Positions 20,852 to 59,879 of a stretch of 64,000 bases of DNA are shown here, piece after piece. This DNA comes from a bacterium (GTDB taxonomy: Bacteria; SZUA-182; DTGQ01). How positions within the stretch are numbered: position 1 is the stretch's first letter; the number at the start of each line of letters is the position of its first letter. Position numbers and translations under genes: made by a program. Location: assembly GCA_040755755.1 (NCBI GenBank), contig JBFLZW010000041.1:2102-66101 (forward strand). The letters are read 5' to 3'. The notes beneath the pieces were generated by a model. The model did no database searches and was not told the origin of the DNA. It worked only from the letters and a program-made list of their open reading frames with translations.

Positions 20852-21205
20852 ATGCGCCAATTAAATATGGAAAAGATAACAAACCTTATCCATTGGGTTG
20901 TCTCTCGTAATATAAAGAATTTTATCTCCGATGGCAAGAGAGGATATGCCTCACCAGAATATGCAATTGGATTCATAGTTATGTATTCAATTTCATTTTT
21001 ATGTAATGCCTTGTTAAATAAGCTAATGCCAAAGGTGGTATTCAGGATGTATGAAAGTATTTTCATACCTTTTTTTCAAAAAGGTAACGGCCCGGATCGC
21101 GCGATGGAGGGAAAATCCTTTATCAGTAAGGCCAAGGTGAGAGGTTGGTCTGAGAAAGAGCTTGATAGAAAAAGCATTTCACTTATCCGTGATTGTATGG
21201 CATAG
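20852..21205 (+). CDS. hypothetical small protein in an AT-rich divergent intergenic region
   Basis: 117-aa ORF with an AT-rich codon bias and no recognisable motifs. It may not be a real gene. Confidence 0.2.
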   Translation: MRQLNMEKITNLIHWVVSRNIKNFISDGKRGYASPEYAIGFIVMYSISFLCNALLNKLMPKVVFRMYESIFIPFFQKGNGPDRAMEGKSFISKAKVRGWSEKELDRKSISLIRDCMA

Positions 21206-21469
21206 ATGTTGCAAAACATTTTTAAGAATATCACTGGCAGTATAGATGCTGACATAATATGGCAAAAAGTATAACTGGTTTAAGGTAAGGTATTGAGGTT
21301 GATCCTCTTCTCAAAAATATTTTTGGTTATGTTAGGAGGTGATCGTATGATCGGTGAAAAAAAGATAAAAAAGGAGGTGAATACCGGGGCGGGAATTTAA
21401 CTGACTGAGAATTTACAGGGTGTTGTAATTTAGGCTAAAGAGCAAGCTTTCTGAAGGAAGGAGATTTTT

Positions 21470-34300: not shown

Positions 34301-35315
34301 GCCAGAATTTTTCCCCTTCCTCCCGCCTCTGCTGGTAAACGCCTGCATACATGAAGATCATGAATAGAACAATCAGATATAATCCGTAAGCCTGATGGGG
34401 AATGACCGGGATTTGATGAAGAAAAAAAACCAGAGAAAAGGAAAGACATCCCAGAGAGAGGTATAACCAGCCAGCCAGCCCCTGCTGTTTCAGTTTCGTC
34501 CGCCGAGTGAGCTGCCAGTAGTAAAAAAAGCTGTAAAAGCCAAGTGTACAGGCAGCAATACACGGATGCTTCTCCAGATATTCTCGGCATTGGATCAGCA
34601 CAGTGCCGATAAAAAAAAAGCCCATCAGACAGGCGGCATTATCCAGCGGATGGAGAGCCTCTTCAGCAAAGACTTTCAATCTCGTAAGCCCGAGCGATAT
34701 TCCTGACAGCAGCAGAGCGAGGGGAACAGAAAGCAGGGGCATAACCAGAGAGAAAGACGGCACCAGCCGGAACGCGGAGAGAAAGCAGGAGAAAATCAGT
34801 AACAAAGCAGCAGGATACATAAATATCCTGCCCAGTAACCGGGCAAAGGCAAAGCTCAGCACAGAAAAAAGCATGAGGATACCACTGCCGAGCAGGGGAT
34901 TGTCAATCAGAAACCCACGGCTGGCAACCAGCAGGCAAACGCCCGCCAGCAGGATCAAACCGTGGCTGAGCTGCCTCCATCCTCCCTTTTCCATCAATCC
35001 GATAGTGACTCGTTCTTCTCTACTTTCCATAACCGCCCAGACTTCACCAAAGGTACCAGGGTGCGCACATAAGACAATTTCCGCATAATTCATGCCGAAA
35101 AAGCGGGCTGAATGTTGAATTGGTGGAAGGAGCGGGGCGCAATGAGTAATTAGTTGATTTGTTGAGGCTTGCTTAATAGAAAGGCAAAAATGTGAGGAAA
35201 TGTCCTGAAAAAGGAAAAGGGAAAGGGCAGGTACCCATTTTTCATACTCCCGGCTCTCTTGAGCAAGGATAATCAAGTGGTACCAAAATTGGCAGGTGTA
35301 AGTCATACTATGCAT
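31389..35315 (-). CDS. giant polytopic membrane protein fused to a C-terminal multihaem c-type cytochrome domain
   Basis: About 950 aa of densely packed TM helices precede a roughly 330-aa C-terminal region carrying 10 CxxCH motifs (CNRCH, CVTCH, CITCH, CFNCH, CITCH, CTDCH, CFTCH, CFRCH, CMACH, CQECH). There is also one possible Cx4CH (CLQQGCH). The true start is uncertain: the longest ORF begins at 35315, and alternative ATGs lie at 35030 and 34991. None has a clear Shine-Dalgarno sequence. Confidence 0.75.
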   Translation of the reverse strand: MHSMTYTCQFWYHLIILAQESREYEKWVPALSLFLFQDISSHFCLSIKQASTNQLITHCAPLLPPIQHSARFFGMNYAEIVLCAHPGTFGEVWAVMESREERVTIGLMEKGGWRQLSHGLILLAGVCLLVASRGFLIDNPLLGSGILMLFSVLSFAFARLLGRIFMYPAALLLIFSCFLSAFRLVPSFSLVMPLLSVPLALLLSGISLGLTRLKVFAEEALHPLDNAACLMGFFFIGTVLIQCREYLEKHPCIAACTLGFYSFFYYWQLTRRTKLKQQGLAGWLYLSLGCLSFSLVFFLHQIPVIPHQAYGLYLIVLFMIFMYAGVYQQRREEGEKFWHPAFVIGFIGLALAFWYYCSRVNLLMIIGFLYSFHFYRLHVLHTRLSRTAGKDLPRKQNKFLVISYLFALGYLFLFAWNGFPVGLFYLVIGLAYAFLYFLAGWQNNFETEGEQSISTYLFGLFMNIAFFEGLLIHSPVYEISWYLILTIPLIWLFFWLGHLGQQMGRLVFSKTIYEVQFLTVLLAFLIPLQLSSYSLDFICMLGFGYLFSMLVFFLITEDQKFLFPVVLVVAFIYYYLIPKELISSGGTNLLFLLPGFLLLGLGMRSQQKGYPLAQVWYFGWLTLSGFFLVTLNYASPDSLYGLSMCVFLHYLAYSFADKQFPRLSKVSYWAGNLLSLISVLAWLYSQDLPSGLFLSCILFAAHLFMACQTNKVWHIGAACLVLAAVWYKGLLTGGIPGNMILTAALPLVVLFYGCSLWARPFLPWGKSMFKNAGHLWVSAIILLALINPGAGKTYWLFLSLLVYLFFYLALSWISPCYEHSFLAAAFFSICFYFGLREVPGLLPTMRLQYFFFDPFFLCLIGYFIKRKQGRDRTQPIFDVATLVALTCCIMAFFSGNLEVSQKLLLLSAVLYMFLAVQLGRELYLYLTTITLGLLAYNFFTVNHQRCISDLSAYSLYLISFLGLFLFLSPSASWMEGDTSSRSKVHWKKALACLGLLAFFPGILIPLYSQKIINYPGFCNRCHYMRPYTESWQTSSHQAVSCVTCHYEHLSTSGNQEDRNKFSLVIRALARTYSILPKSRVSDQACLQQGCHQWAEIQEEKLFKHGIRFSHEQHLKTSPRGKHLGCITCHSQIVQGKHVRVTETICFNCHFKGRQEKDTGVGRCITCHSLPGISINFAGVELNHEKFLANNENLLCTDCHIKVTQGEGQVPRERCFTCHINSKNKLAGDTPLIHTVHVNKQSIECFRCHQDIQHGQKGVSKQASINCMACHRNRHSLPKKVYTYPERNGMHDMTGPMTTSKKSCQECHP

Positions 35316-44998: not shown

Positions 44999-47900
44999 AT
45001 GCGCGAAAAATCTGAGGGCAGGAAAAAGATATTGTGTCTTGGGATTGACATCGGATCGATCAGCGTCGACTTTGCCCTCGTTAACCAGGATCGTGAGATT
45101 ATCAGGACTTCCTATCACCGGGTCAAAGGACAGCCTATTCTCAAGACCCTTGAAGTGCTGGAGAAAGAGTTTGCCGATTTTCTGGCCGAAGATTCCATCA
45201 GCCTGTCGTTTACCGGGACCGGCGGACTGATCCTGAGCCATCTGCTGGATACGTTCTTTATCAATGAAATCATCGCCCAGATGAAAGCGGTCATCCTGCT
45301 TCATCCCGAGGCCAGAACCATTATCGAAATCGGCGGCGAGGATTCCAAACTCATTCTGCTCGACTACCAGCAGTCCTCACAATCTCTGGTCCTGAAGGAT
45401 TTTGCCATGAATACCATGTGCGCTGCGGGTACCGGCTCTTTTCTCGACCAGCAGGCTTCGCGGCTCGGCATCTCGATCGAGGAAGAGTTCGGCGAACTGG
45501 CCATGAAGTCGAAAAACCCGGCCCGTATTGCCGGGCGGTGCAGCGTTTTTGCCAAATCGGATATGATCCACCTCCAGCAGGAGGCCACCCCGGACTATGA
45601 CATCATTGCCGGGCTGTGCATGGCTATGGCCCGAAACTTCAGGGGAAGCATCGGCAAGGGGAAGGAGTTCCAGAAGCCCATTCTCTTTCAGGGAGGAGTT
45701 GCCGCCAATAAGGGCATGGTGAGGGCGTTTGAGACGCTTTTCAAGCTCGCTCCGGGAGAGTTGATCATCCCGAAGTACTATAACTGCATGGGCGCTATCG
45801 GAGCTGCCCTGGTCGCGCTCGAAACCCCGAAATTCATCAGGGGAAGGAATGTCCTGAAAACGATAGCCGATTATTTGAACCAGGACCGCTATCAGGAATC
45901 CCACCTGCCGCCGCTGCACGCTGGCAAGCCCCCGTCTTCGGGAAAACGCCCTGCGGATGCGGGAAAACCATCCGGGGCAGGGAACGGCCAGAGCGGGAGA
46001 GACGCAAAGCCGATTCCGGCCTTTCTGGGAATCGACGTCGGCTCGATCAGTACCAATGTGGTAGTGATCGACAGCAACAAAAAGGTCCTGGCAAAAAGAT
46101 ACCTGATGACTGCCGGACGCCCGATCGAAGCGGTCCGCACGGGGCTTGATGAAGTCGGGCGGGAGCTCCAGGACCGGGTCAGAATCTGCGGAGTGGGCAC
46201 CACCGGATCGGGAAGATACCTGATCGGGGATTTCGTGGGGGCCGATATCATCAAAAACGAGATCACCGCCCAGGCCAAGGCCGCGGCAGCCATTGACCGG
46301 CAGGTCGATACTATCTTCGAAATCGGCGGCCAGGATTCCAAGTACATCAGCCTCGATCAGGGTGCGGTCGTGGATTTCGAGATGAATAAGGTGTGCGCTG
46401 CCGGAACCGGCTCTTTCCTGGAAGAGCAGGCGGAAAAGATCGGCATCAATATCAAGGAGGAGTTCGGAAACCTGGCCCTCTGTGCTTCCGCTCCCGTAAG
46501 GATGGGGGAGCGCTGTACCGTATTCATGGAGTCTGACCTTGTCCACCATCAGCAGAGCGGTGCCGCCAAGGAGAACCTGGTGGCCGGTCTCAGCTATTCG
46601 ATCGTTCATAACTACCTGAACCGCGTGGTGGCCGGACGCAGGGTTGGAAACCGGATATTCTTCCAGGGCGGAGTGGCAGCCAATAAAGGCGTGGTCGCTG
46701 CCTTCGGGCAGGTCCTGCAAAAGCCGGTGATCGTTCCCGAACACCACGAAGTTACCGGGGCCATCGGCGTGGCCCTGATCGCCCAGGAGGAGCAGACCTG
46801 GACCCAGAGCAAATTCCGGGGATTTGATCTGAGCCACCGCCGCTATGAAATCGAGAGCTTTGAATGCGCAGGATGCGCCAATCACTGCCAGATTAAAAAG
46901 GTCGTGCTCGATCAGGACCGGCCGCTTTTCTACGGCAGCCGGTGTGACCGCTACGATGAAAAAAAAGGAGAAAAACTCTCCGCCCATCCCCTCGATCTGT
47001 TTGCCTTCCGGTCACAGGAGCTTCACCGGCAGTACCTGACTCCAGCCGGGGATTCATCTTCTTCCAGCGCGCCTCGCACAAAGATAGGTATCCCCTTATG
47101 CCTGTTCTTTCACGAGTGGCTTCCCTTCTGGCGGACCTTCTTTACGGCCCTGGGGCTTGAAGTCATCCTCTCTCAGGCAACGAACAAGGAGATCATCAAC
47201 CAGGGGGTACAGGCGGCTGTGGACGATACCTGCTTTCCCATCAAGGTGGCCTATGGACATATCCATAACCTCCTCCGGCAAAAGGTCGATTATCTCTTTT
47301 TGCCCAGCATCATCAACATGCCAACCGAGCAGAACGGTATCCATGACAGTTTCAACTGTCCCTACGTCCAGACGATTCCCTACACCGCCGCCGCGGCTAT
47401 CAATATCGAACAGAGCGGGACAAAGCTTCTGCGGCCTGTGGTATACCTGCGAAGAGGACTGAAATCTATCCGCAAAAGCCTCATCCCCCTTGGCCGAAGC
47501 CTGGGAAAATCCGCGGCGGACACCGGAAAAGCCATTGACCGGGCTTACGCTGCCCAAAGCTCCTTCCATGCCGCCCTCCAAAAAAAGGGAGAAGAGATTA
47601 TCAGCACACTCCCGGAACAGGAGAAGGCAATGGTCCTGATCAGCCGGCCCTACAATGGCTGCGATTTCGGGCTGAATCTGGAGATTCCCAGAATTTTTCG
47701 CGAAATGGGCTTTCTGATCATTCCGATGGACTTTCTGCCGCTCCACCAGAACCAGATCGCCGAAAACTGGCCCAATATGTACTGGCGCTACGGGCAAAGA
47801 ATCCTGAGCGCTGCCCGGTTTATCCGAACACGGGCAAACTTGTATGCCATCTACCTGACGAATTTCAGCTGCGGCCCTGATTCGTTCATCACCCAGTTTT

Positions 47901-49291
47901 TCCAGCACACGATGAGTGGAAAGCCCTACCTGCAGATCGAGGTTGACGAGCACAGCGCCGGTGCCGGAATAATCACCCGCTGTGAAGCCTTTGTCGATAG
48001 TCTGCGAAGCCGGCAGCGGCAGCAGGCTGTGGCCGGTGATATGCCTGAAACCGTGATGTGCCGGACGGTCTCTTCAAATTCATGCCGGAAGGATACCTAT
48101 TCTCACCGCAAGCTCTACATTCCCCCCATGGCCGGACATGCCCATGCCCTGTGTGCCGCCTTCAGATCCCAGGGAATAATGGCCGAGGTCATACCGGAGT
48201 CCGACGAGCAGACCCTGCAGTATGGCCGGATGTACACCTCCGGCAAGGAGTGCTTTCCCTGCCTGGTAACAACCGGCGACATGGTAAAAATCACCCGTTC
48301 ATCCCAGTTCGATCCTGAAAAGAGCGCCTTTCTCATGCCTTCCGGCGATGGTCCCTGCCGGTTCGGGCAGTACTATCAGCTGCACCGGCTGGTCCTCGAC
48401 CGCCTGGGTCTTCCCGAAGTGCCAATCTATTCTCCGAGTCAGGGGGAAACTTTTTACCGTGAGCTGGGGATCATGGGGAGAAAGTTTATTCGTCTTGCCT
48501 GGCAGGGGATCGTTATTACCGACTACCTCGAAAAGTGGCTTCTGCAAAACCGGCCCTATGAAAGCTCTCCCGGGGAGGCAGACCGGATTTATAACCAATG
48601 CCTGTCCCTGCTCTGCCAGACTATCGAAACTCAAGGGGCTGCCTTTCCGGTTATCGGGCAGATCCTGCGGATCCTCGGCGAATTTCGCCGGGAGCCGAAA
48701 ACACAGCGGCCAATCATCGGTATTGTGGGCGAGATTTTTGTCAGGTCCAACCGCTTCAGTAACAACGACCTGATCCGCAGAATCGAAGCCCTCGGCGGGG
48801 AGGTCTGGATGCCGCCAATTACCGAGTGGTTCCATTATATCAATTACACCAGCAAGATTCACAGCCTGGTCAATCAGAATCTGAAAAACCTGCTTTCGAC
48901 CATGATCCGGGATATTCTGCAAAAGAAGGACGAGCGCAAAATTCACCGCCTGCTCTGCCCGGCCATTCTCGACGGAAAAGACCCTTCGATCGAGCAGCTC
49001 CTCGATAACAGCCGCCCCTACCTGCATTCCTCCTTCGAGGGTGAGGCCATCCTGAGCATTGGCAAGGCCATAGATTATGCCGCTAAAAACATGGACGGAT
49101 TGATCAATGTCATGCCCTTCACCTGCATGCCGGGAACCATCGCTTCCACGATCATGAAACGAGTGCGGATGGACTACCGCGATTTTCCTTTCCTGAACCT
49201 GGCGTATGACGGCCTCGAGCAAACCTCCATCAAGACCCGGCTGGAGGCATTCCTGTACCAGGCCCGGCAATTCCAGGAAAAGGCGCGGTAA
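44999..49291 (+). CDS. CoA-substrate-specific enzyme activase fusion (two BadF/BadG/BcrA/BcrD-type ATPase domains plus a 2-hydroxyacyl-CoA-dehydratase-like DUF2229 domain)
   Basis: Two ASKHA ATPase repeats are present (LGIDIGSISVDFAL...CAAGTGSFL; LGIDVGSISTNVVV...CAAGTGSFL), followed by a Cys-containing dehydratase-like C-terminal half. The protein is 1430 aa. Confidence 0.85.
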   Translation: MREKSEGRKKILCLGIDIGSISVDFALVNQDREIIRTSYHRVKGQPILKTLEVLEKEFADFLAEDSISLSFTGTGGLILSHLLDTFFINEIIAQMKAVILLHPEARTIIEIGGEDSKLILLDYQQSSQSLVLKDFAMNTMCAAGTGSFLDQQASRLGISIEEEFGELAMKSKNPARIAGRCSVFAKSDMIHLQQEATPDYDIIAGLCMAMARNFRGSIGKGKEFQKPILFQGGVAANKGMVRAFETLFKLAPGELIIPKYYNCMGAIGAALVALETPKFIRGRNVLKTIADYLNQDRYQESHLPPLHAGKPPSSGKRPADAGKPSGAGNGQSGRDAKPIPAFLGIDVGSISTNVVVIDSNKKVLAKRYLMTAGRPIEAVRTGLDEVGRELQDRVRICGVGTTGSGRYLIGDFVGADIIKNEITAQAKAAAAIDRQVDTIFEIGGQDSKYISLDQGAVVDFEMNKVCAAGTGSFLEEQAEKIGINIKEEFGNLALCASAPVRMGERCTVFMESDLVHHQQSGAAKENLVAGLSYSIVHNYLNRVVAGRRVGNRIFFQGGVAANKGVVAAFGQVLQKPVIVPEHHEVTGAIGVALIAQEEQTWTQSKFRGFDLSHRRYEIESFECAGCANHCQIKKVVLDQDRPLFYGSRCDRYDEKKGEKLSAHPLDLFAFRSQELHRQYLTPAGDSSSSSAPRTKIGIPLCLFFHEWLPFWRTFFTALGLEVILSQATNKEIINQGVQAAVDDTCFPIKVAYGHIHNLLRQKVDYLFLPSIINMPTEQNGIHDSFNCPYVQTIPYTAAAAINIEQSGTKLLRPVVYLRRGLKSIRKSLIPLGRSLGKSAADTGKAIDRAYAAQSSFHAALQKKGEEIISTLPEQEKAMVLISRPYNGCDFGLNLEIPRIFREMGFLIIPMDFLPLHQNQIAENWPNMYWRYGQRILSAARFIRTRANLYAIYLTNFSCGPDSFITQFFQHTMSGKPYLQIEVDEHSAGAGIITRCEAFVDSLRSRQRQQAVAGDMPETVMCRTVSSNSCRKDTYSHRKLYIPPMAGHAHALCAAFRSQGIMAEVIPESDEQTLQYGRMYTSGKECFPCLVTTGDMVKITRSSQFDPEKSAFLMPSGDGPCRFGQYYQLHRLVLDRLGLPEVPIYSPSQGETFYRELGIMGRKFIRLAWQGIVITDYLEKWLLQNRPYESSPGEADRIYNQCLSLLCQTIETQGAAFPVIGQILRILGEFRREPKTQRPIIGIVGEIFVRSNRFSNNDLIRRIEALGGEVWMPPITEWFHYINYTSKIHSLVNQNLKNLLSTMIRDILQKKDERKIHRLLCPAILDGKDPSIEQLLDNSRPYLHSSFEGEAILSIGKAIDYAAKNMDGLINVMPFTCMPGTIASTIMKRVRMDYRDFPFLNLAYDGLEQTSIKTRLEAFLYQARQFQEKAR

Positions 49292-49894: not shown

Positions 49895-51640
49895 TCACCA
49901 CAGGAACCCACTCAACCCGGTATAGCCGAAGATGCTGCCTGTCCCAAAACCGAAACCATACGCCGGACTGGAGGAGTAACCATACGTGCCGGAGAATTGG
50001 CCATAAGTTATGGGCGAACTGACCACACTCGTGAAGCCGAAGCTGCCCACGGGGCTGTACCAGCCGGAGGACATGCTGCCAAAGCCGCTTCCACCTCCCC
50101 CCCCACTTCCCCCATAGCCGAAGCCAGCCGCTGGACTGTATGCTGCGGGGCTATAGTTATACGCAGCGCCATAGTTGTACGCCGTGCCGCTGTACAGGCG
50201 GGGGGACTGGCTGTATGCAGCAGACTGGCCATAGGAAAAGGATGAGGGGCTGAGCGGACTGGCGGGATTAAAACTGACCACAGGGGTAACGCCACCGCTG
50301 GAGACAAAGCTCCCTGCCGGGCTATAGCCGGAGAATGAACTGCCAAAGCCGCCAGTGATTCCCCCTCCAAACCCAGGAGTATATCCGGACGCAGGAGGAG
50401 TATAGCTGCTTGCCTGTCTGCCGGGTGTTGATTGACCGGCGGTGCTGGATGTATGGGCAGGGTTGGCGGAAGAAGCGGGGTTGTTTCCGGTTGGACTATT
50501 CGAGGCCACAGGACCGGCCGGGGCAACCGATTGACTGACGGCACCGGGAGTAACCTCGAGGGAAAGAGCATAGTCACCGGCTGTGATATCATCTGTCTTT
50601 CTCAGGCAATTGATGTGAACTACATCGTTTTTGATCTCAAACACCAGGCCAGTCTCTGCCTGAGTAACCGAAGGGGCGGCATGATAGTAAGACCATGAGA
50701 TTGCTGACAGATCGGAATTATCTCTTCCATGAGCCTCCTTGAGGCGAAAGATATCGACGTGGTGAATATCGCGCTGGGCATCATACGGAATCCAGCCAAG
50801 TTCAGGATAGTAAACCTCGACCCAGGAATGAGGGCCGGTAAGCCAGCTCGTATAGTAGGTCGAATAGCCGATCGACCAGTCATACATTCTGGCCAGACTG
50901 ATTCCCGAAACGAAGCGGGCGGGGATTCCTCCGGCCCGCAGCAGGGCACAGGCAAGATGAGCAAAATTGGTGCAGACCCCTTTTCTGAGCATCAGGGTAG
51001 AGCGGGCATCAGAAGCTGGATTTGCATCGTACTCGATGTTGTTCAATATCCACTTGACGATATTTTCAACCGCCTGGAATTGATGGGTACAGCCGGCTAC
51101 CAGCTCATCAGCCTTGGCTTTGATCGCCTGATCGGTGGATTGAACCATACCGGTACCTGTGAGATATTGCTGTACATCAAGTGGCAGAGTCCCTTGATTG
51201 ACCGGGAAAGGATCACTGCTCACCAGGGGGTCGAGTATCGCCCTGACAGTTGCCTGCTGGGTTATGGTAATGTCCAGAGCAGTATTCCCGATGCCCTTCC
51301 AGATCAGATCGGTATACGAATTCCCATACTTATCGGTCCCCGGCCGCTGAATGTCCGGCTCTGATGAGAAGGAAAGGGAAAAGGCGCTGTCTTCCTGAAC
51401 ATTCGTGCGGTAGGTATACTGAGCAGGGTGAAAGTAGCGGTAGGAGAATTCGCTGACCGCTCCCGTGATCTGGAAGGTAAGTGTCTGCTCGGTAACGATA
51501 TCCGCTGACATGTTGCCGGTAATATAAAAGTATTCTGCCCTCAAGATGCCTGCCTTCATGAATTGCTGAAAAAAGAGCGAGATACACAGCAAAAAGATCA
51601 ACTTCGATTTGAGCAACAAAATTTTATCTATTTTCTTCAT
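49895..51640 (-). CDS. secreted transglutaminase-like cysteine protease domain protein with a ~230-aa Gly/Ser/Tyr/Ala-rich low-complexity C-terminal tail
   Basis: It has a signal peptide and the transglutaminase core (GVCTNFAHLACALLRAGGIPARFVSG ... HSWVEVY ... D). The tail is made of SGY/FG-type repeats and ends GLSGFLW. Confidence 0.75.
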   Translation of the reverse strand: MKKIDKILLLKSKLIFLLCISLFFQQFMKAGILRAEYFYITGNMSADIVTEQTLTFQITGAVSEFSYRYFHPAQYTYRTNVQEDSAFSLSFSSEPDIQRPGTDKYGNSYTDLIWKGIGNTALDITITQQATVRAILDPLVSSDPFPVNQGTLPLDVQQYLTGTGMVQSTDQAIKAKADELVAGCTHQFQAVENIVKWILNNIEYDANPASDARSTLMLRKGVCTNFAHLACALLRAGGIPARFVSGISLARMYDWSIGYSTYYTSWLTGPHSWVEVYYPELGWIPYDAQRDIHHVDIFRLKEAHGRDNSDLSAISWSYYHAAPSVTQAETGLVFEIKNDVVHINCLRKTDDITAGDYALSLEVTPGAVSQSVAPAGPVASNSPTGNNPASSANPAHTSSTAGQSTPGRQASSYTPPASGYTPGFGGGITGGFGSSFSGYSPAGSFVSSGGVTPVVSFNPASPLSPSSFSYGQSAAYSQSPRLYSGTAYNYGAAYNYSPAAYSPAAGFGYGGSGGGGGSGFGSMSSGWYSPVGSFGFTSVVSSPITYGQFSGTYGYSSSPAYGFGFGTGSIFGYTGLSGFLW

Positions 51641-52000: not shown

Positions 52001-53218
52001 ATGGAGGATAAGAAGGGTGTACTCAGGGAGCTTCCGGTGAATATTTTACACATCCTGGACCATTCTCTCCCGTACGTTACCGGATACAGCCTGAGAAGCC
52101 ATACCATGATAAAACTGCAACGGGATTTGGGGTTCAATCCTCTGATCATCACTTCTTCCCGGCATGCCCTTGTCTCTAATCCCGTGGAGTTGATCGATGG
52201 GATTTATCACTACCGGACCTTTTTTCCGGAAGAAGGGGAAAATTTCGGGAAACACTGCCTTTTGGGGAAAGAAAAGCTCCTGATTTCTCTCCTGAATCGG
52301 GCTGTTTCGAAGATAGCGGCCCAGCAGAGGGTAGATTTGATCCATGCCCATTCTCCCTGTACCAATGGACTGGCCGCTCTGGAAGTCTGCCGGAGAAAGA
52401 GAATACCCCTGCTGTATGAGATTGATGATGTTCAGGACACCTTAACTGCCGGCCGCAAGGAGGAAACTCCGCTGTCGAGCCCTGTTTTGAGGAGAAATCT
52501 GGAAGCTTTTTTATGGCAGCAGGCCGGGGCTGTGGTGGTCAGGGAAGAAAGACAGCGGGAGGAAATCATCCGTTCGGGAATTCCCGGAGAAAATGTTTAC
52601 GTAGTTCCCCGGGAAGATGGCTGCACCAGAGAGACAAATTTGCAGGAGGATAATCAGACAGCAGGTTTCATCTGCTCTCTGTATCATCTGCAAGGGGTCA
52701 GTTCCCTGCTCGGAGTATTTTTGAAAGAAAGAAATTCAACCGGCGGCTCCCTCGCTGTTCCCGGCACGGAAGGAGACAGGAGGAAGAAAAAATCAGGAGT
52801 CAAATCCCAAGGTTCTGATACTTCAGGGCATATTATTTATATCGGTCAGGTCAAGCCCCGGAATTCCCGACGCCTGCATCCGCTCATCAATGTTCTGGTT
52901 TATCCGTGGTTAGCGGCGGGTCCAATCGGGGAGAAAGTTCTTTCTTCAGATCCGATCGATGCCCTGCTTATCGATGGAGGTGCTGCGGCTGGTGAAGCAG
53001 CCGATTTATGGGAGATGAAAGCGGATAAGCAGGCGCAGTCAACTTTAGGGGCTGAAGATATTTCCGAATTAACCGGCAGGTGTCTCAAGCTTCTCATAAA
53101 CAGGCAAATCAGGCACATTTGTGAGGAAAGATGCAGGCAGCAGGCCGGGAAGAATCCCTCCCGGCTTGAAGTAATGGAGCAGTATCTCAAAATTTATAAA
53201 ACGCTGCTCTCTCTCTAG
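52001..53218 (+). CDS. GT4-family glycosyltransferase-like protein (resembles the exosortase-locus-associated subfamily; C-terminal half divergent)
   Basis: The N-terminus ILHILDHSLPYVTGYSLRSHTMIKLQRDLGF...DLIHAHSP is typical of the GT4 N-domain. The C-terminal region is poorly conserved. Confidence 0.5.
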   Translation: MEDKKGVLRELPVNILHILDHSLPYVTGYSLRSHTMIKLQRDLGFNPLIITSSRHALVSNPVELIDGIYHYRTFFPEEGENFGKHCLLGKEKLLISLLNRAVSKIAAQQRVDLIHAHSPCTNGLAALEVCRRKRIPLLYEIDDVQDTLTAGRKEETPLSSPVLRRNLEAFLWQQAGAVVVREERQREEIIRSGIPGENVYVVPREDGCTRETNLQEDNQTAGFICSLYHLQGVSSLLGVFLKERNSTGGSLAVPGTEGDRRKKKSGVKSQGSDTSGHIIYIGQVKPRNSRRLHPLINVLVYPWLAAGPIGEKVLSSDPIDALLIDGGAAAGEAADLWEMKADKQAQSTLGAEDISELTGRCLKLLINRQIRHICEERCRQQAGKNPSRLEVMEQYLKIYKTLLSL

Positions 53219-53356
53219 TTCCCTTCCCGAAGGGGAAATTACCTGGTGAGCATCCATAAAGTTCCGATAAGAACACTGATGGGTTTTCAACTGGCAGAGG
53301 GAACCTTGTGATCTCGATTTGTCATTCTTCCCCGGAATTTCAGCGGAGCGCGAATC

Positions 53357-55294
53357 ATGGGCGGAATTGTCGGAGCTTACGGATATTACAATCAGCAGCC
53401 GGTTCAGGAAGGGTTGATTCGGAAAATGACCAATACCTTAAAGCACCGGGGGCCGGACGAGAGGGGTGAATATCATGACCGGGAGCTTGCCCTGGGACAT
53501 CGGCGGCTGTGCATTATTGATAGGGAAGAAGGACAGCAGCCGCTGTTCAATGAAGACCGTTCAAAAGTGCTGGTCCTCGATGGAGAGATTTATAATTATC
53601 GAGAGCTGCAGCAGTATCTGAGGGGCAGGGGGCATTATTTCCAGACCGACTCCGATGCGGAAGTTGCTCTCCACCTCTATGAGGAAAAAGGAGTACAATT
53701 TCTTGGCGATCTGCAGGGCATGTTCTCCCTGGCACTGTGGGACAAGAAGGCCAGGCAACTGGTGCTGGCCCGCGACCAACTGGGCATCAAGCCGCTGTAT
53801 TACTGTTCTGACGGATACCGGCTGCTGTTTGCCTCCCAGATCAGAGCGCTTTTCCAGGACCGGACTGTGGACCGGGAGCTTAATCCCCGCAGCCTGGCCG
53901 ACTACTTGACTTACCTGTATGTTCCGGCACCCAAAAGCATTTTCCTGGGGATTTATAAAATCCCTCCGGGCTATTATCTGCTCTGTTCTCCGGAAGGGTA
54001 TGTGGTGCGAAAGTACTGGGATCTTGAATTACCTTCCCAGGAAGAGGAGGGGTCGTCTTGGGAGGAGTATCAGCACACCCTGCTCGATCTGCTTTCGGAG
54101 TCGATCAGCAGTCATTTGCCTGCCGGCATGCCGGCAGAGGTGTTCCTGAGTGGAGGGCTCGATTCGGCGACCCTGCTGGCTGTGGGGCATCGGCTGGGGG
54201 CAGACCTGCGGGCTTATACTCTCGGATTTGATGGGTCAGACATGGATGAGCGGCCCTTTTCACGCCTTCTGGCCCATTATTTCGACATTCCATACCGGGA
54301 ATGGGTCGGGAACCCGAAGATGATGCTGAAACGGTTGGACCAGGTGGTCCAGTCATATGATGAACCCCTGGGCGATGCCGCAACTGTTTTGACCTATGAA
54401 ATGGCCCGGCAGGCAGCAGGACAGCATACCAGAGTAGCCCTGTCCGGAGAAGGAGGGGGAATGATCTTTACCCCCTGCTGCCGGTATGGCCTGAACCGGG
54501 AGGATAATTGCATCCAGCGCTTGTGGTCAGACGGCATGGTGAATACTTATTCTCCGGGAGCGGGGAGCTGTTTGGGAGTTGGATGGATAGGTCGATTACT
54601 TCAGAGGCAACCCGGCCAGTCCGGGGCATCTTTGGCCCGTACGTACTTTAACTCCCTGGCCTGTTTTTCGGCCGAAGAGATCCATCGGCTTTTGAGCAGG
54701 GATTTCTTTTCCGAACTTCGCGGGTATGATCCATTTGTTCTGTTCCATGATCTCTACCAGAAGGCAGCCAGTCCCGACCCCTGCTCACGGCTGCACTATG
54801 TGGAGATGAAGAGCTATTTACCGGATAATGTACTGGCCAAAGTCGATCGAGCCGGTATGGCCAATTCCCTGGAAATCCGGCTGCCGCTTCTGAATCACCG
54901 GCTGGTGGAATTTCTCGTCCGGGTGCCGGTCCGGTTCAGGCTGAAGGGAACAGAAGAAAGATATCTTTTAAGAAAAACCCTGGAAGGGATTCTTCCGTCG
55001 GTAATTGTCTGGCGCAGGGAACAGAAAGCCGATCTCCTGTTCCGAAACCTGCTTTTGGATGACAGTTGCCTGACAGAGGAGGATTTGGGGCAGAGCAGTC
55101 ACTGTTCTCTTTTATCTGAAATCCTGAACTTTGACGAAATAACTTCCATCCGTCAGCACCATCGGCGGGGAAACCGGGATTACTCCAGGCAGATGTGGGC
55201 TGTACTTTTTTTGTGCAAATGGTACCGCCAGTACATGTCCAGAACCACCAGCAATGCCCGTGAAGAGGCTGAGCCATCGCTGGTGGTGTGCTAA
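53357..55294 (+). CDS. asparagine synthetase (AsnB)-family amidotransferase lacking the N-terminal nucleophilic Cys (MGGI instead of MCGI)
   Basis: It shows strong AsnB-like sequence (HRGPD, DGEIYN, the PP-loop SGGLDS), but codon 2 is GGC (Gly) rather than Cys. Confidence 0.85.
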   Translation: MGGIVGAYGYYNQQPVQEGLIRKMTNTLKHRGPDERGEYHDRELALGHRRLCIIDREEGQQPLFNEDRSKVLVLDGEIYNYRELQQYLRGRGHYFQTDSDAEVALHLYEEKGVQFLGDLQGMFSLALWDKKARQLVLARDQLGIKPLYYCSDGYRLLFASQIRALFQDRTVDRELNPRSLADYLTYLYVPAPKSIFLGIYKIPPGYYLLCSPEGYVVRKYWDLELPSQEEEGSSWEEYQHTLLDLLSESISSHLPAGMPAEVFLSGGLDSATLLAVGHRLGADLRAYTLGFDGSDMDERPFSRLLAHYFDIPYREWVGNPKMMLKRLDQVVQSYDEPLGDAATVLTYEMARQAAGQHTRVALSGEGGGMIFTPCCRYGLNREDNCIQRLWSDGMVNTYSPGAGSCLGVGWIGRLLQRQPGQSGASLARTYFNSLACFSAEEIHRLLSRDFFSELRGYDPFVLFHDLYQKAASPDPCSRLHYVEMKSYLPDNVLAKVDRAGMANSLEIRLPLLNHRLVEFLVRVPVRFRLKGTEERYLLRKTLEGILPSVIVWRREQKADLLFRNLLLDDSCLTEEDLGQSSHCSLLSEILNFDEITSIRQHHRRGNRDYSRQMWAVLFLCKWYRQYMSRTTSNAREEAEPSLVVC

Positions 55295-55836
55295 GTTGAG
55301 TTTGGCATGCCATTTGCATTAATGAACGTGGTAACGAAATAAATGCCCAGACCGGGGAGCTTCAACATGGCGGTGAATTGTGGGGGATGTTCGAAAACAT
55401 ATTGGAGCCCTTCCGGCCACGACAACTGAAGCGGAAAATCTGATTATTGCGAATTGTGAACGGTAATTTTCTCTGGTGACTGCGAACAAACTACTTGCGG
55501 AGCTTCGACTACACACGACAAATCCTATGACTGCTGGGTGAATGCTGCTGCTCACGAGGTATGGGAACTTTGCTCTCTGATCTGGGCTTTTATTACTGTC
55601 ATGGCACTGTTATGAGTGATTGTTGCCAGAGCCGACAGGAATTCTGCACTCAAATCTTGCTGGGCGGAATCCGGAAAGAGCGTGGCCGGCGTGCCCCTGT
55701 TGTGGACTGGCCTTCCAGAATCTGTATAAATTTTTACCAGGCACGATAGTGAGCTCGTCTCTCAGATCGAGGTATAGTATCTATATGTAATATTTATTCA
55801 TAACTTATACTAATTAATAACTATTTTAGCTTTATT

Positions 55837-55936
55837 TCTCCTGACTTCTGGCTCCTGATTTCTGACTTCCGGTTTCTGACTCCTGACTTCGCTCTCCTGA
55901 CCACGGACCATTGACTTTTGGCTCCTGACTCCGGGC
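55837..55936 (+). repeat. tandem heptamer/14-mer repeat array (CTCCTGA CTTCTGG)n upstream of the wza promoter
   Basis: It consists of 14 consecutive 7-bp units with TGA/TGG at fixed phase (ctcctga cttctgg ctcctga tttctga cttccgg tttctga ctcctga ...). Confidence 0.8.
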
Positions 55937-56006
55937 TTGGATCTCCTTAACTTGTAATTTACTAAATTTTACAATAAGTTTCTTACATAGCTGTCTGAAA
56001 AACTAG

Positions 56007-56035
56007 TTGACAAAGGGGTGGGCATGGTTTAATAT
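56007..56035 (+). promoter_or_regulatory. putative sigma-70 promoter (TTGACA-17 bp-TAATAT) about 210 bp upstream of wza
   Basis: It has a perfect -35 hexamer, a 17-bp spacer and an AT-rich -10 hexamer. Confidence 0.5.
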
Positions 56036-56247: not shown

Positions 56248-57249
56248 ATGAGAATGCTAACTATACTTATATTTATGCCTATGCTCCTGAAGGTCGGCTT
56301 ATTTTCCTGGGCTAGAGCTTGCTTTTTCTTCTCTGTTCAATTAAGGCGTCTGGCAGCGGTTCTCTTTTCCCTGGTTATCACCTGCCTTATCTCATCATCT
56401 TCCATCTCCATAGAGTTGAAGGATTATTCTATAGGTCCTCAGGATGTTTTAAAAATCGAGGTCTGGGATAATCCCGATTTATCGAGGGAAGTGACGGTCT
56501 CATTGAAAAATACCATTTCCTTCCCGCTGATAGGAGAAATGCAGGTTGAAGGGTATACCGTAGAGAATCTCCAGCAGAAGATCCGGACCCGTCTGGCAGA
56601 TGGTTATCTGGTTAATCCCCAGGTTACGGTAACGGTCAAGGAATATAACAGCAAAAAGGTTTATGTGCTGGGAGAGGTCGAGAAGCCCGGCTATTATCCC
56701 TTCTCCAAAGTAACCACCATGGTCGAGATCATCTCGATGGCTGGCGGACTTACTCCCGATGCCGGGCAGGAAGCTTATATTATCCGGTCTCCGGAGAAAA
56801 TTGACCCTGACGATATCAAACACCTCATTCAGGGAGGAAAAAACGACCTTCCCTCCGAAACTGCAATCAACAGCTCAAACACCATCCCCGGCAAGGGTTC
56901 TGCATCCGAGGGTGCAGTCAAAAACCAGGTTATTACTCTTAACCTGAACGACTTTAATCAGGGCATCAATCTCAATTTCGAGCTTCAGAATAATGATACT
57001 CTCTACATTCCCAAGGCCCAGTTTTTCTATGTGATTGGGGAAGTGAAATCTCCCGGACGGTTCAAGCTGGAAAAAGAGGTTAATGTACTGCAAACCATCT
57101 CGATGGCAGGCGGGCTTACTCAGAAGGCCAGTGAAAGAAAGATCAGGATCATCAGGACCCTGGATGGCAAGGAGCATGAGATAAAAGCCAAAATGACGGA
57201 TCTGGTTTTGCCGGATGACATAATCAAGGTTCCTGAGAGTTTCTTTTGA
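56248..57249 (+). CDS. wza: polysaccharide export outer-membrane protein (Wza/Poly_export + SLBB domains)
   Basis: The Poly_export motif IGPQDVLKIEVWDNPDL is present, followed by two SLBB-like repeats (...ISMAGGLT... twice). The exact start is uncertain. Confidence 0.85.
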   Translation: MRMLTILIFMPMLLKVGLFSWARACFFFSVQLRRLAAVLFSLVITCLISSSSISIELKDYSIGPQDVLKIEVWDNPDLSREVTVSLKNTISFPLIGEMQVEGYTVENLQQKIRTRLADGYLVNPQVTVTVKEYNSKKVYVLGEVEKPGYYPFSKVTTMVEIISMAGGLTPDAGQEAYIIRSPEKIDPDDIKHLIQGGKNDLPSETAINSSNTIPGKGSASEGAVKNQVITLNLNDFNQGINLNFELQNNDTLYIPKAQFFYVIGEVKSPGRFKLEKEVNVLQTISMAGGLTQKASERKIRIIRTLDGKEHEIKAKMTDLVLPDDIIKVPESFF

Positions 57250-57431
57250 ATTTAGCTGTTTATCCATCAAAGTTTATCTCCTCATAAGTTATATCTCAAG
57301 GTTTGGGTTTTCCCTTTCAGCATCACCATGCAGCGTTTTATTTGAAGTATGTATGTGCAGGAATAATTGTCGGTGTGGTTGTATGGCCGGGTTATCATTG
57401 CATCAGGTAACTCACAGGGCGAAGCTATTTT

Positions 57432-57503
57432 CAGGAGTCAGAATCCAGAAGTCAGAAGTCAGGAGAAGAGGATTGCTTATTCTGACTCCTGACTCCTGAC
57501 TCC
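57432..57503 (+). repeat. inverted array of the same heptamer repeat (AGTCAGA/TCTGACT) forming a long imperfect palindrome between wza and wzc
   Basis: The sequence CAGGAGTCAGAATCCAGAAGTCAGAAGTCAGGAG ... TTCTGACTCCTGACTCCTGACTCC is present. Confidence 0.75.
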
Positions 57504-57566
57504 AGGGTACGATATAGTTCAAACTTAAGGATAGTTGCCACAATCAGTATAGGGGAATACTTATCT

Positions 57567-59879
57567 ATGGAGCATCAACAATTGAGCTTTCAAGAGGAAG
57601 AGATACATCTTCGGGACTATTGGCGGGTCGTCATGAAGTATCGATGGACCGTCGTCACCCTCTTTATCATCGTGTTCGTAACCGTAGCTATAGCTACTTT
57701 CAGCGCCGAGCCGGTCTACAAGGCCACTGCCCAGATTCTCATCGATAAGGAAAACCCCAATGTTCTCTCAATCCAGGAGGTCATGTCCCTGGATGCTCAG
57801 GATCTTGACTACTATCAGACGCAATATAAAATTCTCCAGAGCCGGTCCCTGACCAGGGCGGTCATCAAGGCCATGGACCTTGCCCATCACAAGGAGTTTG
57901 ACAGTACTCAGCAGGAAAAAGGGCTGATTGCCACAGTCGCCAGCTCTATCAGGGAATCGCTCAGCTCCCTGCTGCATACCTTCTTTCCTTCCCGGCCTGA
58001 TTCTTCGGCAACAGCCACTCTGACTCCTCAGGAGATCCGTGACCGGGAGGAAGGCAGGCTGATCGATGCCTTTCTCGACAAGCTGCAGGTCGAGCCGATC
58101 AGAAACAGCCACCTGGTCAACATCAGCTTTCTGGCCCATGACCCGACCCTGACGGCAAGGGTTGTCAATGTCCTGGCCGATCAGTACATTCAACACAACC
58201 TGAAGCTCAAGTTCGAGGCCTCGATGGATGCCTCCGAGTGGTTGAACCGGAATGTGGGCGAGCTCAAGAAGAAGGTGGAAACCTCCGAGGAGGCCCTTCA
58301 CTCCTATAAGGAGGAGAATAAGATTGTCTCTCTTGAGGAAAAGCAGGACATTATCGTCCAGAAGCTTTCCGAGCTCAACACCGCAGTCACGGATGCCAAA
58401 ACCAAGAGGATCCGTCTTGAGACCCTCTATAATCAGGCAAACAAATTTAAAGCCAGCGGGGAGATGCTCGAATCCCTCCCTTCGGTCATGAATAACCCTC
58501 TCATCCAGGAGCTGAAAAAGGATTATATCTCTCTTCTGGCCGAGTATAACCGGGAGTCCAAACAATATGGTTCCAAGCATCCGCACATCATCAAGATCAG
58601 CTCTCAATTGACCTCTCTCAAGAACAGGATTCAGTCCGAGGTTCAAAAGATTGCCAACAGCATCAAGACCGAGTATGAAATCGCCGTAGCCCAGGAGCAG
58701 GTCCTGATCGAGGCCCTGAACGAGCAAAAGGAAGAGGCCCTGGAGCTGAACAAGAAGGCGATTCAATACAACGTCCTGAAGCGGGATGCCGAAAGCAACC
58801 AGCAGATGTTCGAGGTGGTCCTGAACCGCCTGAAAGAGACCGATCTGACCCGCGGCCTGAAGAACAGCAACATCCGGATCATCGACCGGGCCGAAGTGCC
58901 CGAATTTCCGATCAAGCCCAATAAAAAGCTCAACCTGTTACTGGGTGCGATCGTCGGGCTGTTTGCCGGTATCGGGCTGTCCTTCTTCTTTGAATATCTG
59001 GATAATACTATCAAGACCCCGGAAGACCTCAAGCGCTATCTTAACCTTACCTTTCTCGGTCCGGTTCCCCATCTGGATTTATCCGAAACAGAGGGACTTC
59101 CCTGCCCTGAGATGATAGCCCTGCACAAACCCAAAAGCCATACCAGTGAGGCCTACAAGGGCCTGCGGACCAGCGTCCTGTTCTCCTTCCCCGACCATGA
59201 TCCCAAGGCATTGCTGATTACCAGCGCCTCTCCTTCTGAAGGAAAGACCATTACATCGACCAATCTGGCCATCACCATGGCCCAGGGAGGCTCGCGGGTG
59301 GTCATGATTGACTGCGATATGCGCAAACCCCGTCTTCACCGCCTGTTGAATATGAAGAATGAAAAGGGAATTTCGAACCTGCTCATCGGCCAGTGCCCGA
59401 TCGAGGATGTTCTGCAGAATGGACCGGTGGACAATCTCAAGATTATAACCTGCGGCCATCGCCCTCCCAATCCTTCCGAGCTTCTGGTTTCTGATAACCT
59501 GAAAAATATCCTGACTGAGCTTAAAAAACGGTTCGATCATATCATCATCGACTCACCCCCGCTGGTTGCGGTAACGGATTCGGTAATCATCAGCCGCATT
59601 GTCGATGGTGTCATTCTGGTGATCCACGGAGGTGTGACCAGCAGGGAAGTCATCAAGCGGGGTTATGACCTTTTGAAAAATGTCAATGCCCCGATGCTCG
59701 GTGGAATCATAAATAATATTGACCTTGGCAAGCGAAGCTACTATTATTACTACCAGTATTATTATTACCAGTATTATGGAGACGGGGAAACGAAAACACA
59801 CAAGCGGCGCACGAGGAAAAAACGCGTACAGCATGCTGAGCACGAGGTAAACGAAAGCCGGGAGGTTGCCTGGAAATAA
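57567..59879 (+). CDS. wzc: polysaccharide co-polymerase / tyrosine autokinase (Wzc-like: Wzz chain-length domain + BY-kinase)
   Basis: It has 2 TM helices flanking a coiled-coil periplasmic domain, a Walker A motif SASPSEGKT and a C-terminal Tyr cluster YYYYYQYYYYQYY, followed by a basic tail. Confidence 0.9.
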   Translation: MEHQQLSFQEEEIHLRDYWRVVMKYRWTVVTLFIIVFVTVAIATFSAEPVYKATAQILIDKENPNVLSIQEVMSLDAQDLDYYQTQYKILQSRSLTRAVIKAMDLAHHKEFDSTQQEKGLIATVASSIRESLSSLLHTFFPSRPDSSATATLTPQEIRDREEGRLIDAFLDKLQVEPIRNSHLVNISFLAHDPTLTARVVNVLADQYIQHNLKLKFEASMDASEWLNRNVGELKKKVETSEEALHSYKEENKIVSLEEKQDIIVQKLSELNTAVTDAKTKRIRLETLYNQANKFKASGEMLESLPSVMNNPLIQELKKDYISLLAEYNRESKQYGSKHPHIIKISSQLTSLKNRIQSEVQKIANSIKTEYEIAVAQEQVLIEALNEQKEEALELNKKAIQYNVLKRDAESNQQMFEVVLNRLKETDLTRGLKNSNIRIIDRAEVPEFPIKPNKKLNLLLGAIVGLFAGIGLSFFFEYLDNTIKTPEDLKRYLNLTFLGPVPHLDLSETEGLPCPEMIALHKPKSHTSEAYKGLRTSVLFSFPDHDPKALLITSASPSEGKTITSTNLAITMAQGGSRVVMIDCDMRKPRLHRLLNMKNEKGISNLLIGQCPIEDVLQNGPVDNLKIITCGHRPPNPSELLVSDNLKNILTELKKRFDHIIIDSPPLVAVTDSVIISRIVDGVILVIHGGVTSREVIKRGYDLLKNVNAPMLGGIINNIDLGKRSYYYYYQYYYYQYYGDGETKTHKRRTRKKRVQHAEHEVNESREVAWK

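Follow-up and report, generated by a model that had tools for sequence, protein, structure and literature searches.

What remains of an AsnB-type amidotransferase once its catalytic nucleophile is gone is the question raised by an open reading frame (ORF) in a 64-kb stretch of contig JBFLZW010000041.1 (assembly GCA_040755755.1), the whole of which is hereafter called the window. The ORF, 53357..55294 (+), encodes a protein of 645 amino acids (aa) with an N-terminal nucleophile (Ntn) amidotransferase-like domain (~aa 1-200) and a C-terminal Asn_synthase/PP-loop domain. Its 5' end reads ATG (53357), GGC (53360-53362) and then GGA ATT GTC GGA, which gives MGGIVG and an N-terminus of MGGIVGAY; codon 2 (GGC, 53360..53362, +) thus places Gly where the Ntn nucleophile Cys1 belongs. 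The evidence assembled below suggests that the product, referred to here as the Cys-less protein, is on balance a pseudoenzyme, in which both half-reactions would have been lost and which would be kept as a non-catalytic protein.

The substitution itself is secure. In-frame translation upstream of the ATG reads ...GTL-stop-SRFVILPRNFSGARI-M, the frame being shut by a TGA at 53309..53311 (+), 15 codons 5' of the ATG. Within these 15 codons no ATG, GTG or TTG occurs, and the codon just before the ATG is ATC. A Shine-Dalgarno-like GGAG lies 8 nt 5' of the ATG (53345..53348, +), with an equivalent GGAG or GGGG in the orthologues. A sequence-only reading of the locus had seen Gly at codon 2 and no upstream in-frame start that could supply a Cys, and both observations hold; a hidden N-terminal Cys behind a mis-called start is ruled out by the upstream stop and the lack of any alternative start. 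Furthermore, a database protein identical to the Cys-less protein (P0001, 645 aa) is present in both NCBI and Logan assemblies, in the latter on two contigs, one of them found in three samples. As to whether the variant is conserved, a question that the same reading had raised, codon 2 is GGC in every full-length orthologue. A sequencing or assembly error at this codon is ruled out by the identical independent assemblies and the shared GGC. An artefact of either kind, for which nothing speaks but the general error risk of a metagenome-assembled genome (MAG), is therefore regarded as practically negligible.

The Cys-less protein belongs to a small clade of orthologues, comprising P0002 (81% identity), P0003 (67%), P0005 (60%), P0006 (57%), P0004 (56%) and P0007 (55%), below which homologue identity drops sharply to 39% or less. 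P0007 is N-truncated by a contig end, and the apparent extra length of P0005 stems from an over-extended start call; full-length members, counted as six proteins plus the copy in genome L011, all start MGGIVG[AV]YGYYNQQP. Among 269 retrieved homologues, a non-Cys residue at the nucleophile position is found in this clade only, further apparently Cys-less entries being truncated or mis-started, and the Cys is present in 100% of 242 canonical paralogues. When 1.84e9 representatives clustered at 50% identity were searched, the clade formed a single cluster (967 bits), with the next match at 428 bits. Carriers among 185,579 species-representative genomes were two MAGs only, JAILZY01 'HOT.CON.50' and JBFMGO01 'MAG299'. 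GroEL of the window genome is 95% identical to that of L011; among GroEL neighbours, MAG matches extend down to ~82%, and Nitrospinota and Methylomirabilales follow at ~80%. The gene is lineage-restricted and confined to a handful of uncultured genomes.

Membership of the AsnB family was supported at the level of sequence and fold. Pfam recognises both halves of the protein (GATase_7 at 6.8e-43 and Asn_synthase at 6.4e-60; GATase_7/GATase_6 at aa 33-166 and Asn_synthase at aa 242-623), which confirms its earlier description as an AsnB homologue with an Ntn and a synthetase domain. With 394 bits the protein clears the generic model TIGR01536 (cut-off 267), and it is for this reason that P0001 bears the NCBI name 'asparagine synthase (glutamine-hydrolyzing)'. 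The best NCBIfam family is TIGR03108 (XrtA/PEP-CTERM amidotransferase, 'eps_aminotran_1'), which aligns over model positions 1-623 of 628 at 461.6 bits, below its cut-off of 816.9; clade members score 420-475 bits, and the closest Cys-bearing relatives (37-39% identical) 764-835. Judged by these matches, the protein is a descendant of the XrtA/PEP-CTERM-type AsnB-family amidotransferases. Two memberships were dismissed: that of the lasso peptide isopeptide-bond cyclases (NF033535), where 257.9 bits fall short of the 525 required and the neighbours are polysaccharide genes with no lasso genes among them, and that of the N-acetylglutaminylglutamine amidotransferases, on score and context. In the comparison with asparagine synthetase B, the NF006949 score of 253 bits stayed under the cut-off of 499. 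An AlphaFold2 (AF2) model built from 120 sequences reached a mean predicted local distance difference test score (pLDDT) of 85 and a predicted template modelling score (pTM) of 0.87, and was used in place of a model from the seven clade sequences alone, which was unusable at pLDDT 32. Foldseek matched the model to TsnB9 (7ylz, 5e-33), AsnB (1ct9, 2e-28) and human asparagine synthetase (ASNS; 6gq3, 3e-25), and also to beta-lactam synthetase (1jgt) and carbapenam synthetase CarA (1q15). The TIGR01536 score, the AF2 model and the Foldseek matches to 1ct9 and 6gq3 agree on the two-domain AsnB fold.

Losses in the former glutaminase domain extend beyond the nucleophile. Where Met removal would expose the Cys, the Cys-less protein and all its orthologues have Gly, and codon 75 (GAT, 53579..53581, +) encodes Asp instead of the invariant oxyanion-hole Asn (Asn74 of AsnB and ASNS), a replacement shared by 7/7 members. 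In human ASNS, Arg48, Val52, Asn74, Gly75, Glu76 and Asp96 serve substrate recognition and thioester stabilisation (PMC6748925). The glutamine-pocket loop (aa 48-62; 53498..53542, +) reads HRRLCIIDREEGQQP against the canonical HRRLSIIDLxGGHQP and is modelled with low confidence, and in this 'SIIDLxGGHQP' region P0006 carries a 26-aa Q/Y-rich insertion (aa 60-88, at window aa ~59). The equivalents of Gly75 and Glu76 are retained, the latter (E77) in all members; the Cys-less protein also keeps R50, the equivalent of an Arg49 that has become His in 3/6 members, and D100, the equivalent of Asp98, which is Glu in P0005. Conservation was assessed by aligning the clade with the 242 full-length Cys-bearing paralogues, which gave 121 columns conserved to at least 90%; in the N-domain the clade deviates at 5-10 of 61 such columns, compared with a canonical mean of 2.0. 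Because Cys1 has been replaced by Gly, it is near certain from these residues that the protein no longer hydrolyses glutamine, and the change of Asn74 to Asp in all members adds weight to this prediction, which the sequence-only reading had made from the missing Cys. With both the nucleophile and the oxyanion Asn missing, the NCBI name cannot be correct.

The synthetase site is more eroded than the glutaminase domain. The PP-loop SGGLDS (aa 265-270; 54149..54166, +) is intact in the Cys-less protein, as had been reported from the sequence, and conforms to SGGxDS. Downstream, the canonical motif SGDGGDENFAGY has degraded to SGEGGGMIFTPC (aa 363-374; 54443..54478, +), so that SGEGGGM stands where SG(E/D)G(x)DE is expected. 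The equivalent of AsnB E348 (E365) is kept, and those of D351, E352 and G356/Y357 are lost: D368 is replaced by Gly (AsnB D351, human ASNS D367), E369 by Met (AsnB E352) and G373/Y374 by Pro/Cys. At both D351 and E352, canonical paralogues show either no variation or 99% conservation. Codons 555-557 (55019..55027, +) read E-Q-K, and the canonical invariant Lys (AsnB K449, human K466) is thereby Glu; this K555-to-Glu replacement is shared by P0002 and P0003, and the other four members have Lys. The canonical Gly-Phe that follows K449 is Lys-x in all clade members (Lys-Ala in the Cys-less protein), with K557 invariant in the clade. In human ASNS, the D367A and E364A/Q variants are inactive, and Lys-466 (AS-B Lys449) is conserved and essential for catalysis (PMC6748925).

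Further changes surround this site. In the clade, low-complexity sequence of variable length (aa 373-430; 54473..54646, +) takes the place of a ~55-residue segment whose sequence the closest canonical relatives largely share; it is modelled at pLDDT below 50 and bears low-complexity insertions in orthologues; P0004, for instance, has a 58-aa A/S/Y-rich insertion (aa ~395-455, at window aa ~395) just past the degraded SGxGxDE motif. Insertions at both former active-site regions fit a freedom to vary there. In the Cys-less protein, the specific losses include C2G, N75D, G261E, D368G, G373P, Y374C, K535R and K555E. Over the 39 columns invariant among the 242 canonical sequences, a canonical protein deviates 0.07 +/- 0.28 times (maximum 2) and a clade member 7-9 times, and at the C-domain columns conserved to at least 90% the clade deviates at 15-24 of 60 against a canonical mean of 1.9.

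Across the seven members, the PP-loop Asp reads D, D, D, D, N, D, G (Asn in P0005, Gly in P0007) and the D351 equivalent reads G, G, R, E, D, E, D, so that no member (0/7) has both the PP-loop Asp and the D351-equivalent Asp. The otherwise invariant Glu of SLEVR reads E, E, R, H, Q, Q, Q and is lost in 5/7, and the K449 equivalent reads E, E, E, K, K, K, K. Since the orthologues differ in their substitutions at active-site positions, a shared adenylation function is disfavoured. The sequence-only reading had taken the adenylating domain to be intact, with free ammonia or a beta-lactam-synthetase-like reaction as its chemistry; this part is not supported, given the replacement of the D351, E352, G356/Y357 and K449 equivalents. 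A Cys-less N-domain joined to an intact adenylation site, the arrangement of beta-lactam and carbapenam synthetases, is therefore found in its first half and absent in its second. It is probable, on residue grounds, that the protein no longer forms an acyl-adenylate. A synthetase site that has eroded, and has done so differently among orthologues, is most simply explained if selection preserves a function independent of adenylation.

That there is a function under selection was established by estimating the ratio of non-synonymous to synonymous substitution rates (dN/dS, or omega) by the Nei-Gojobori method (NG86) among seven orthologues. Whole-gene dN/dS was 0.17-0.25, with 0.38 for the nearly identical pair L001-L003. 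The N-domain (aa 1-200) gave 0.08-0.15, around 0.11, with the same pair excepted, and the C-domain gave 0.19-0.29. The first 20 residues are nearly invariant (~0-0.1 in most pairs), and residues 373-430 reached 0.3-1.1. Between the window and L011, the evolutionary rates of the Cys-less gene (dN 0.21, omega 0.18) and of its upstream neighbour, a glycosyltransferase family 4 (GT4)-like gene described below (dN 0.33, omega 0.21), exceed those of Wza, Wzc and RmlD/B/A (dN 0.09-0.14, omega 0.08-0.13) by a factor of 2-3. The gene is relaxed yet clearly selected.

These figures bear directly on the idea of a decaying pseudogene, a non-functional relic of an amidotransferase. The disappearance of many conserved residues, the faster evolution relative to the neighbours and the low-complexity insertions would all be expected of such a relic. 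However, the ORF is intact in eight independent assemblies, covering all lineages, despite dS above 1, the first 20 residues hardly vary and the ribosome-binding site is conserved. With dN/dS far from 1, down to about 0.1 in the N-domain, and no frameshifts in orthologues, a dead pseudogene was dismissed and is considered very improbable. A pseudoenzyme is defined operationally as an enzyme homologue that lacks catalytic residues and is under purifying selection, and the Cys-less protein qualifies on all three counts.

Several observations weigh against a pseudoenzyme. The argument for lost adenylation draws on residue identity only; SGGxDS is intact in 5/7 members, and the equivalent of AsnB E348 is Glu or Asp in all of them. 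Within the clade, D335-E336-P337, K485 and D497-R498 do not vary, and neither does K557, which lies two residues past the lost Lys and might replace it as a 'migrated' catalytic residue. A synthetase-domain dN/dS of 0.2 would likewise fit an enzyme that has taken on a new substrate. Moreover, in L001, L003 and L004 the gene occurs without its GT4-like neighbour and outside a polysaccharide locus. Rewiring of the active site may have occurred, with new chemistry carried out without the canonical Lys and Asp residues.

The enzyme that these points would describe is a glutaminase-dead, adenylation-competent ligase, which would activate a sugar or polymer carboxylate as acyl-AMP for attack by ammonia or another nucleophile, possibly with K557 acting for K555. 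Several strands of evidence are in keeping with it. The SGGLDS loop and E365 are preserved, the C-domain is under purifying selection (omega 0.19-0.29), and the window locus is a polysaccharide locus with a GT4-like neighbour. GT4 genes flank canonical paralogues in 8/10 sampled loci. Cys-less relatives can be synthetically active, as beta-lactam synthetase and CarA are, and the C1A and C1S mutants of E. coli AsnB retain ammonia-dependent synthesis. In addition, WbpS-type enzymes of polysaccharide loci have been implicated in uronamide formation (PMC6025236). Against a ligase stand the replaced D351, E352, K449 and G356/Y357 equivalents, the loss of the PP-loop Asp in P0005 and P0007 and of the SLEVR Glu in 5/7, and substitutions that are inconsistent among orthologues under one selective regime. 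The conserved ~55-aa segment after SGxGxDE has also become variable and disordered, and the active Cys-less or variant relatives compared retain their motifs, as in the 'SGEAADE' of TsnB9. A ligase is accordingly rated rather unlikely.

Under the pseudoenzyme reading, selection would maintain the protein as a binding partner or scaffold. The PP-loop backbone elements S-G-G-x-x-S and S-G are invariant, which suggests that it may still bind phosphate or a nucleotide. A special case would be a ligand sensor that binds glutamine or a nucleotide, putatively and without turnover, and couples nitrogen or energy status to polysaccharide output. The N-domain is the most constrained part of the protein (omega ~0.11), E77 is found in all members with D100 and R50 kept in the Cys-less protein (the Glu76, Asp98 and Arg49 equivalents), and a conserved sigma-54-type promoter directly follows the gene. 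Against it speak His for Arg49 in 3/6 members, Glu for D100 in P0005 and a variable pocket loop that has gained 26 aa in P0006, and this special case is considered improbable.

The pseudoenzyme reading also draws on the company the gene keeps. In the window, the order is a transglutaminase-like gene (-), the GT4-like gene, the Cys-less gene, a 950-nt spacer, a Wza-like OPX exporter (56248-57249) and a Wzz/BY-kinase Wzc-like gene (57567-59879; together 56248..59879, +), followed by rmlD, rmlB and rmlA. The GT4-like gene (52001..53218, +), located 5' of the Cys-less gene, is itself degraded. Its sole family match, at full length, is TIGR04063 (stp3, the PEP-CTERM/XrtA glycosyltransferase), with 154 bits where the cut-off is 442. 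Pfam recognises its N-half only. Its C-half, the sugar-nucleotide domain, contains low-complexity insertions and lacks a conserved EX7E motif, and among PDB sequences the GT4-like protein had no match at E <= 1. With a dN/dS of 0.2-0.3, this gene may encode a second pseudoenzyme, possibly co-transcribed with the first. In the window, L006, L008, L009 and L011 the two genes lie next to each other in the same orientation, and the order of the Cys-less gene, wza, wzc and rml is kept in L006, L007 and L011. The Cys-less protein would thus probably work with its degraded, putatively co-transcribed partner, and in most genomes its role would be tied to the adjacent Wza/Wzc polysaccharide export genes.

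The partnership is not obligatory, because the Cys-less gene occurs without the GT4-like gene in L001, L003 and L004. In these loci, which represent the P0004/P0006 lineage, it lies beside a response regulator and an oppositely oriented (convergent) OEP-MacA-MacB operon. Its 5' side there consists of 0.8-1.3 kb without called genes (L003 8680-10001; L004 921-2240; L001 2752-3526), in which tblastn found no glycosyltransferase remnant. The placement of the gene in a polysaccharide locus, as proposed from the sequence, consequently holds for the window with its GT4-like, Wza, Wzc and RmlDBA neighbours and fails for the loci with MacAB-OEP and a response regulator.

Genes neighbouring the Cys-less gene in the window show XrtA affinities, with matches to stp3, pepcterm_export, pepcterm_ChnLen and pepcterm_TyrKin that all stay below the cut-offs of these XrtA-system families. 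A search of the 64-kb window for an exosortase gave none. A tblastn search with the GT4-like protein against 79 loci holding canonical paralogues returned no homologue. GT4 genes were found to flank canonical paralogues in 8/10 sampled loci (10 flanking ORFs scanned; best match stp2), and they match many GT4 families through their C-domains, unlike the GT4-like gene of the window. It is proposed tentatively, as a possibility on the doubtful side, that the two degraded genes form a conserved 'dead'-enzyme module derived from XrtA-type glycosyltransferase and amidotransferase genes and repurposed non-catalytically, as a scaffold, regulator or ligand sensor, in a Wza/Wzc exopolysaccharide (EPS) system of an uncultured bacterial lineage.

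The spacer between the Cys-less gene and wza holds features of its own. Directly after the stop codon lies a sigma-54-type promoter, TGGCATGCCATTTGCA (55303-55318, +), which reads TGGCACACCATTTGCA in L011 and L091 and TGGTACACTATTTGC in L007; the pattern TGGYAY-N5-TTGCW has two matches in the window against 0.23 expected. The promoter is followed by a conserved block of ~250 nt (55341-55591, +), of which the first ~100 nt and the last ~25 nt are near identical across genomes and the middle is variable, a near-identity that holds between genomes whose coding genes have diverged to dS above 1. Promoter and block also occur at L011 11948-12358, L007 1925-2242, L006 3962-4237 and L091 7170-7445, and a metagenome scan contributed only one copy, nearly identical to that of L006. 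The block shows 2-nt indels between species, a U-tail, a minimum free energy of -76.2 (z = -2.6) and a 15-bp closing helix (GCCCAGA.CCGGGGAGC / GCUCUCUG.AUCUGGGC). Covariation amounted to three compensatory pairs among 56 and, with only three distinct lineages, is uninformative. Rfam and ARAGORN gave no Rfam, tRNA or tmRNA match. The block is a candidate sigma-54-driven small RNA or leader between the Cys-less gene and wza.

Repeats interrupt the spacer in individual genomes. Five direct copies built around CTCCTGAC(T)T lie at 55821-55947, 5' of wza, with a unit of 36 nt in the finder's register or ~14-21 nt by start-to-start spacing; they are present in the window copy only and are absent from L011 and L007. 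In L011 and L091, the stretch that separates the conserved block from the sigma-54 promoter instead holds AT-rich ATAGATAA-type repeats. Closer to wza, a sigma-70-like promoter, TTGACA-17-TAATAT (10/12 matches; 56007-56035, +), has surroundings (TTAGTTGACAAAGGGG.AGGCATGGTTTAATATAC) that are conserved in L011 and L007. The second TGGYAY-N5-TTGCW match of the window is located at 21198-21213 (+), ~260 nt 5' of a 787-aa ORF (21470-23833, +) for which Pfam assigned no family.

Other genes of the window were noted in passing. A 581-aa transglutaminase-core protein (49895-51640, -), divergent from the GT4-like gene, adjoins a gene for a 1430-aa protein with two BcrAD/BadFG-type activase ATPase modules and a DUF2229 domain (44999-49291, +). 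Further upstream, a 1308-aa protein (31389-35315, -) carries C-terminal multihaem cytochrome c domains (Cytochrome_C7, MtrC/MtrF-like), a hint that the organism can transfer electrons in the periplasm or to the outside of the cell.

The pseudoenzyme reading, if correct, has consequences for annotation as well as for enzyme evolution. On the strength of a protein that probably synthesises nothing, metabolic reconstructions would assign these MAGs an AsnB in error. Beta-lactam synthetase and CarA make the AsnB family the textbook example of N-domain retention after glutaminase loss; in the Cys-less protein, erosion reaches the adenylation site as well, while selection continues and acts most strongly on the former glutaminase domain, a sign that this fold serves a purpose other than catalysis. 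Degraded glycosyltransferase-like and amidotransferase-like genes beside wza and wzc suggest accessory, non-enzymatic parts of the EPS machinery, and parts of such a kind would escape homology-based annotation. If the reading is true, the Cys-less protein would to our knowledge be the first pseudoenzyme reported from the AsnB family. A literature search found no description of one, an absence that is not proof, and nothing directly relevant on the function of PEP-CTERM amidotransferases or on Cys-less AsnB in EPS loci. The weight of the case is limited by the few uncultured genomes from which the protein is known.

With the TIGR03108 amidotransferases of exosortase-linked EPS loci the Cys-less protein shares length and two-domain architecture, and its GT4-like neighbour matches only the XrtA-system glycosyltransferase stp3; unlike these proteins, it lacks Cys1, Asn74 and several invariant synthetase residues, and its central conserved segment has been replaced. 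With AsnB and human ASNS it shares the fold, both domains (GATase_7 and Asn_synthase), the PP-loop and an equivalent of E348. It differs from them in the absence of Cys1, Asn74 and the D351/E352 and K449 equivalents, and in the presence of an XrtA-type C-terminal extension.

Beta-lactam and carbapenam synthetases offer a precedent for an AsnB fold that has no N-terminal Cys and keeps its N-domain though it is not a glutaminase. These enzymes lack the Cys nucleophile and are active, their ATP/Mg2+ site being complete and the catalytic Lys in place. The adenylation site of the Cys-less protein, in contrast, is not intact, no beta-lactam genes lie around it, and its sequence similarity to 1jgt is marginal (E = 1.2e-6 in the PDB sequence search). 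The closest solved structure is the hydroxyamidotransferase TsnB9 (7ylz; 4.8e-47 by sequence, 5e-33 by fold, TM 0.75-0.83), which differs in retaining both SGGLDS and SGEAADE in the region aligned (as 'SGEAADEIF'), in its secondary-metabolism context and, at 22% identity, in most of its sequence. WbpS-type amidotransferases of O-antigen and N-glycan loci, which would convert UDP-GalNAcA to GalNAcAN, are likewise AsnB-like and encoded in polysaccharide loci, where they are proposed to be active amidotransferases (PMC6025236); compared by description, they differ from the Cys-less protein in that it is without the catalytic residues. Finally, the herpesviral pseudo-glutamine-amidotransferases belong to a different amidotransferase class, and it is with such pseudoenzymes that the Cys-less protein shares the loss of catalytic residues from a homologue that is nonetheless maintained (PMC7605207, PMC5106787).

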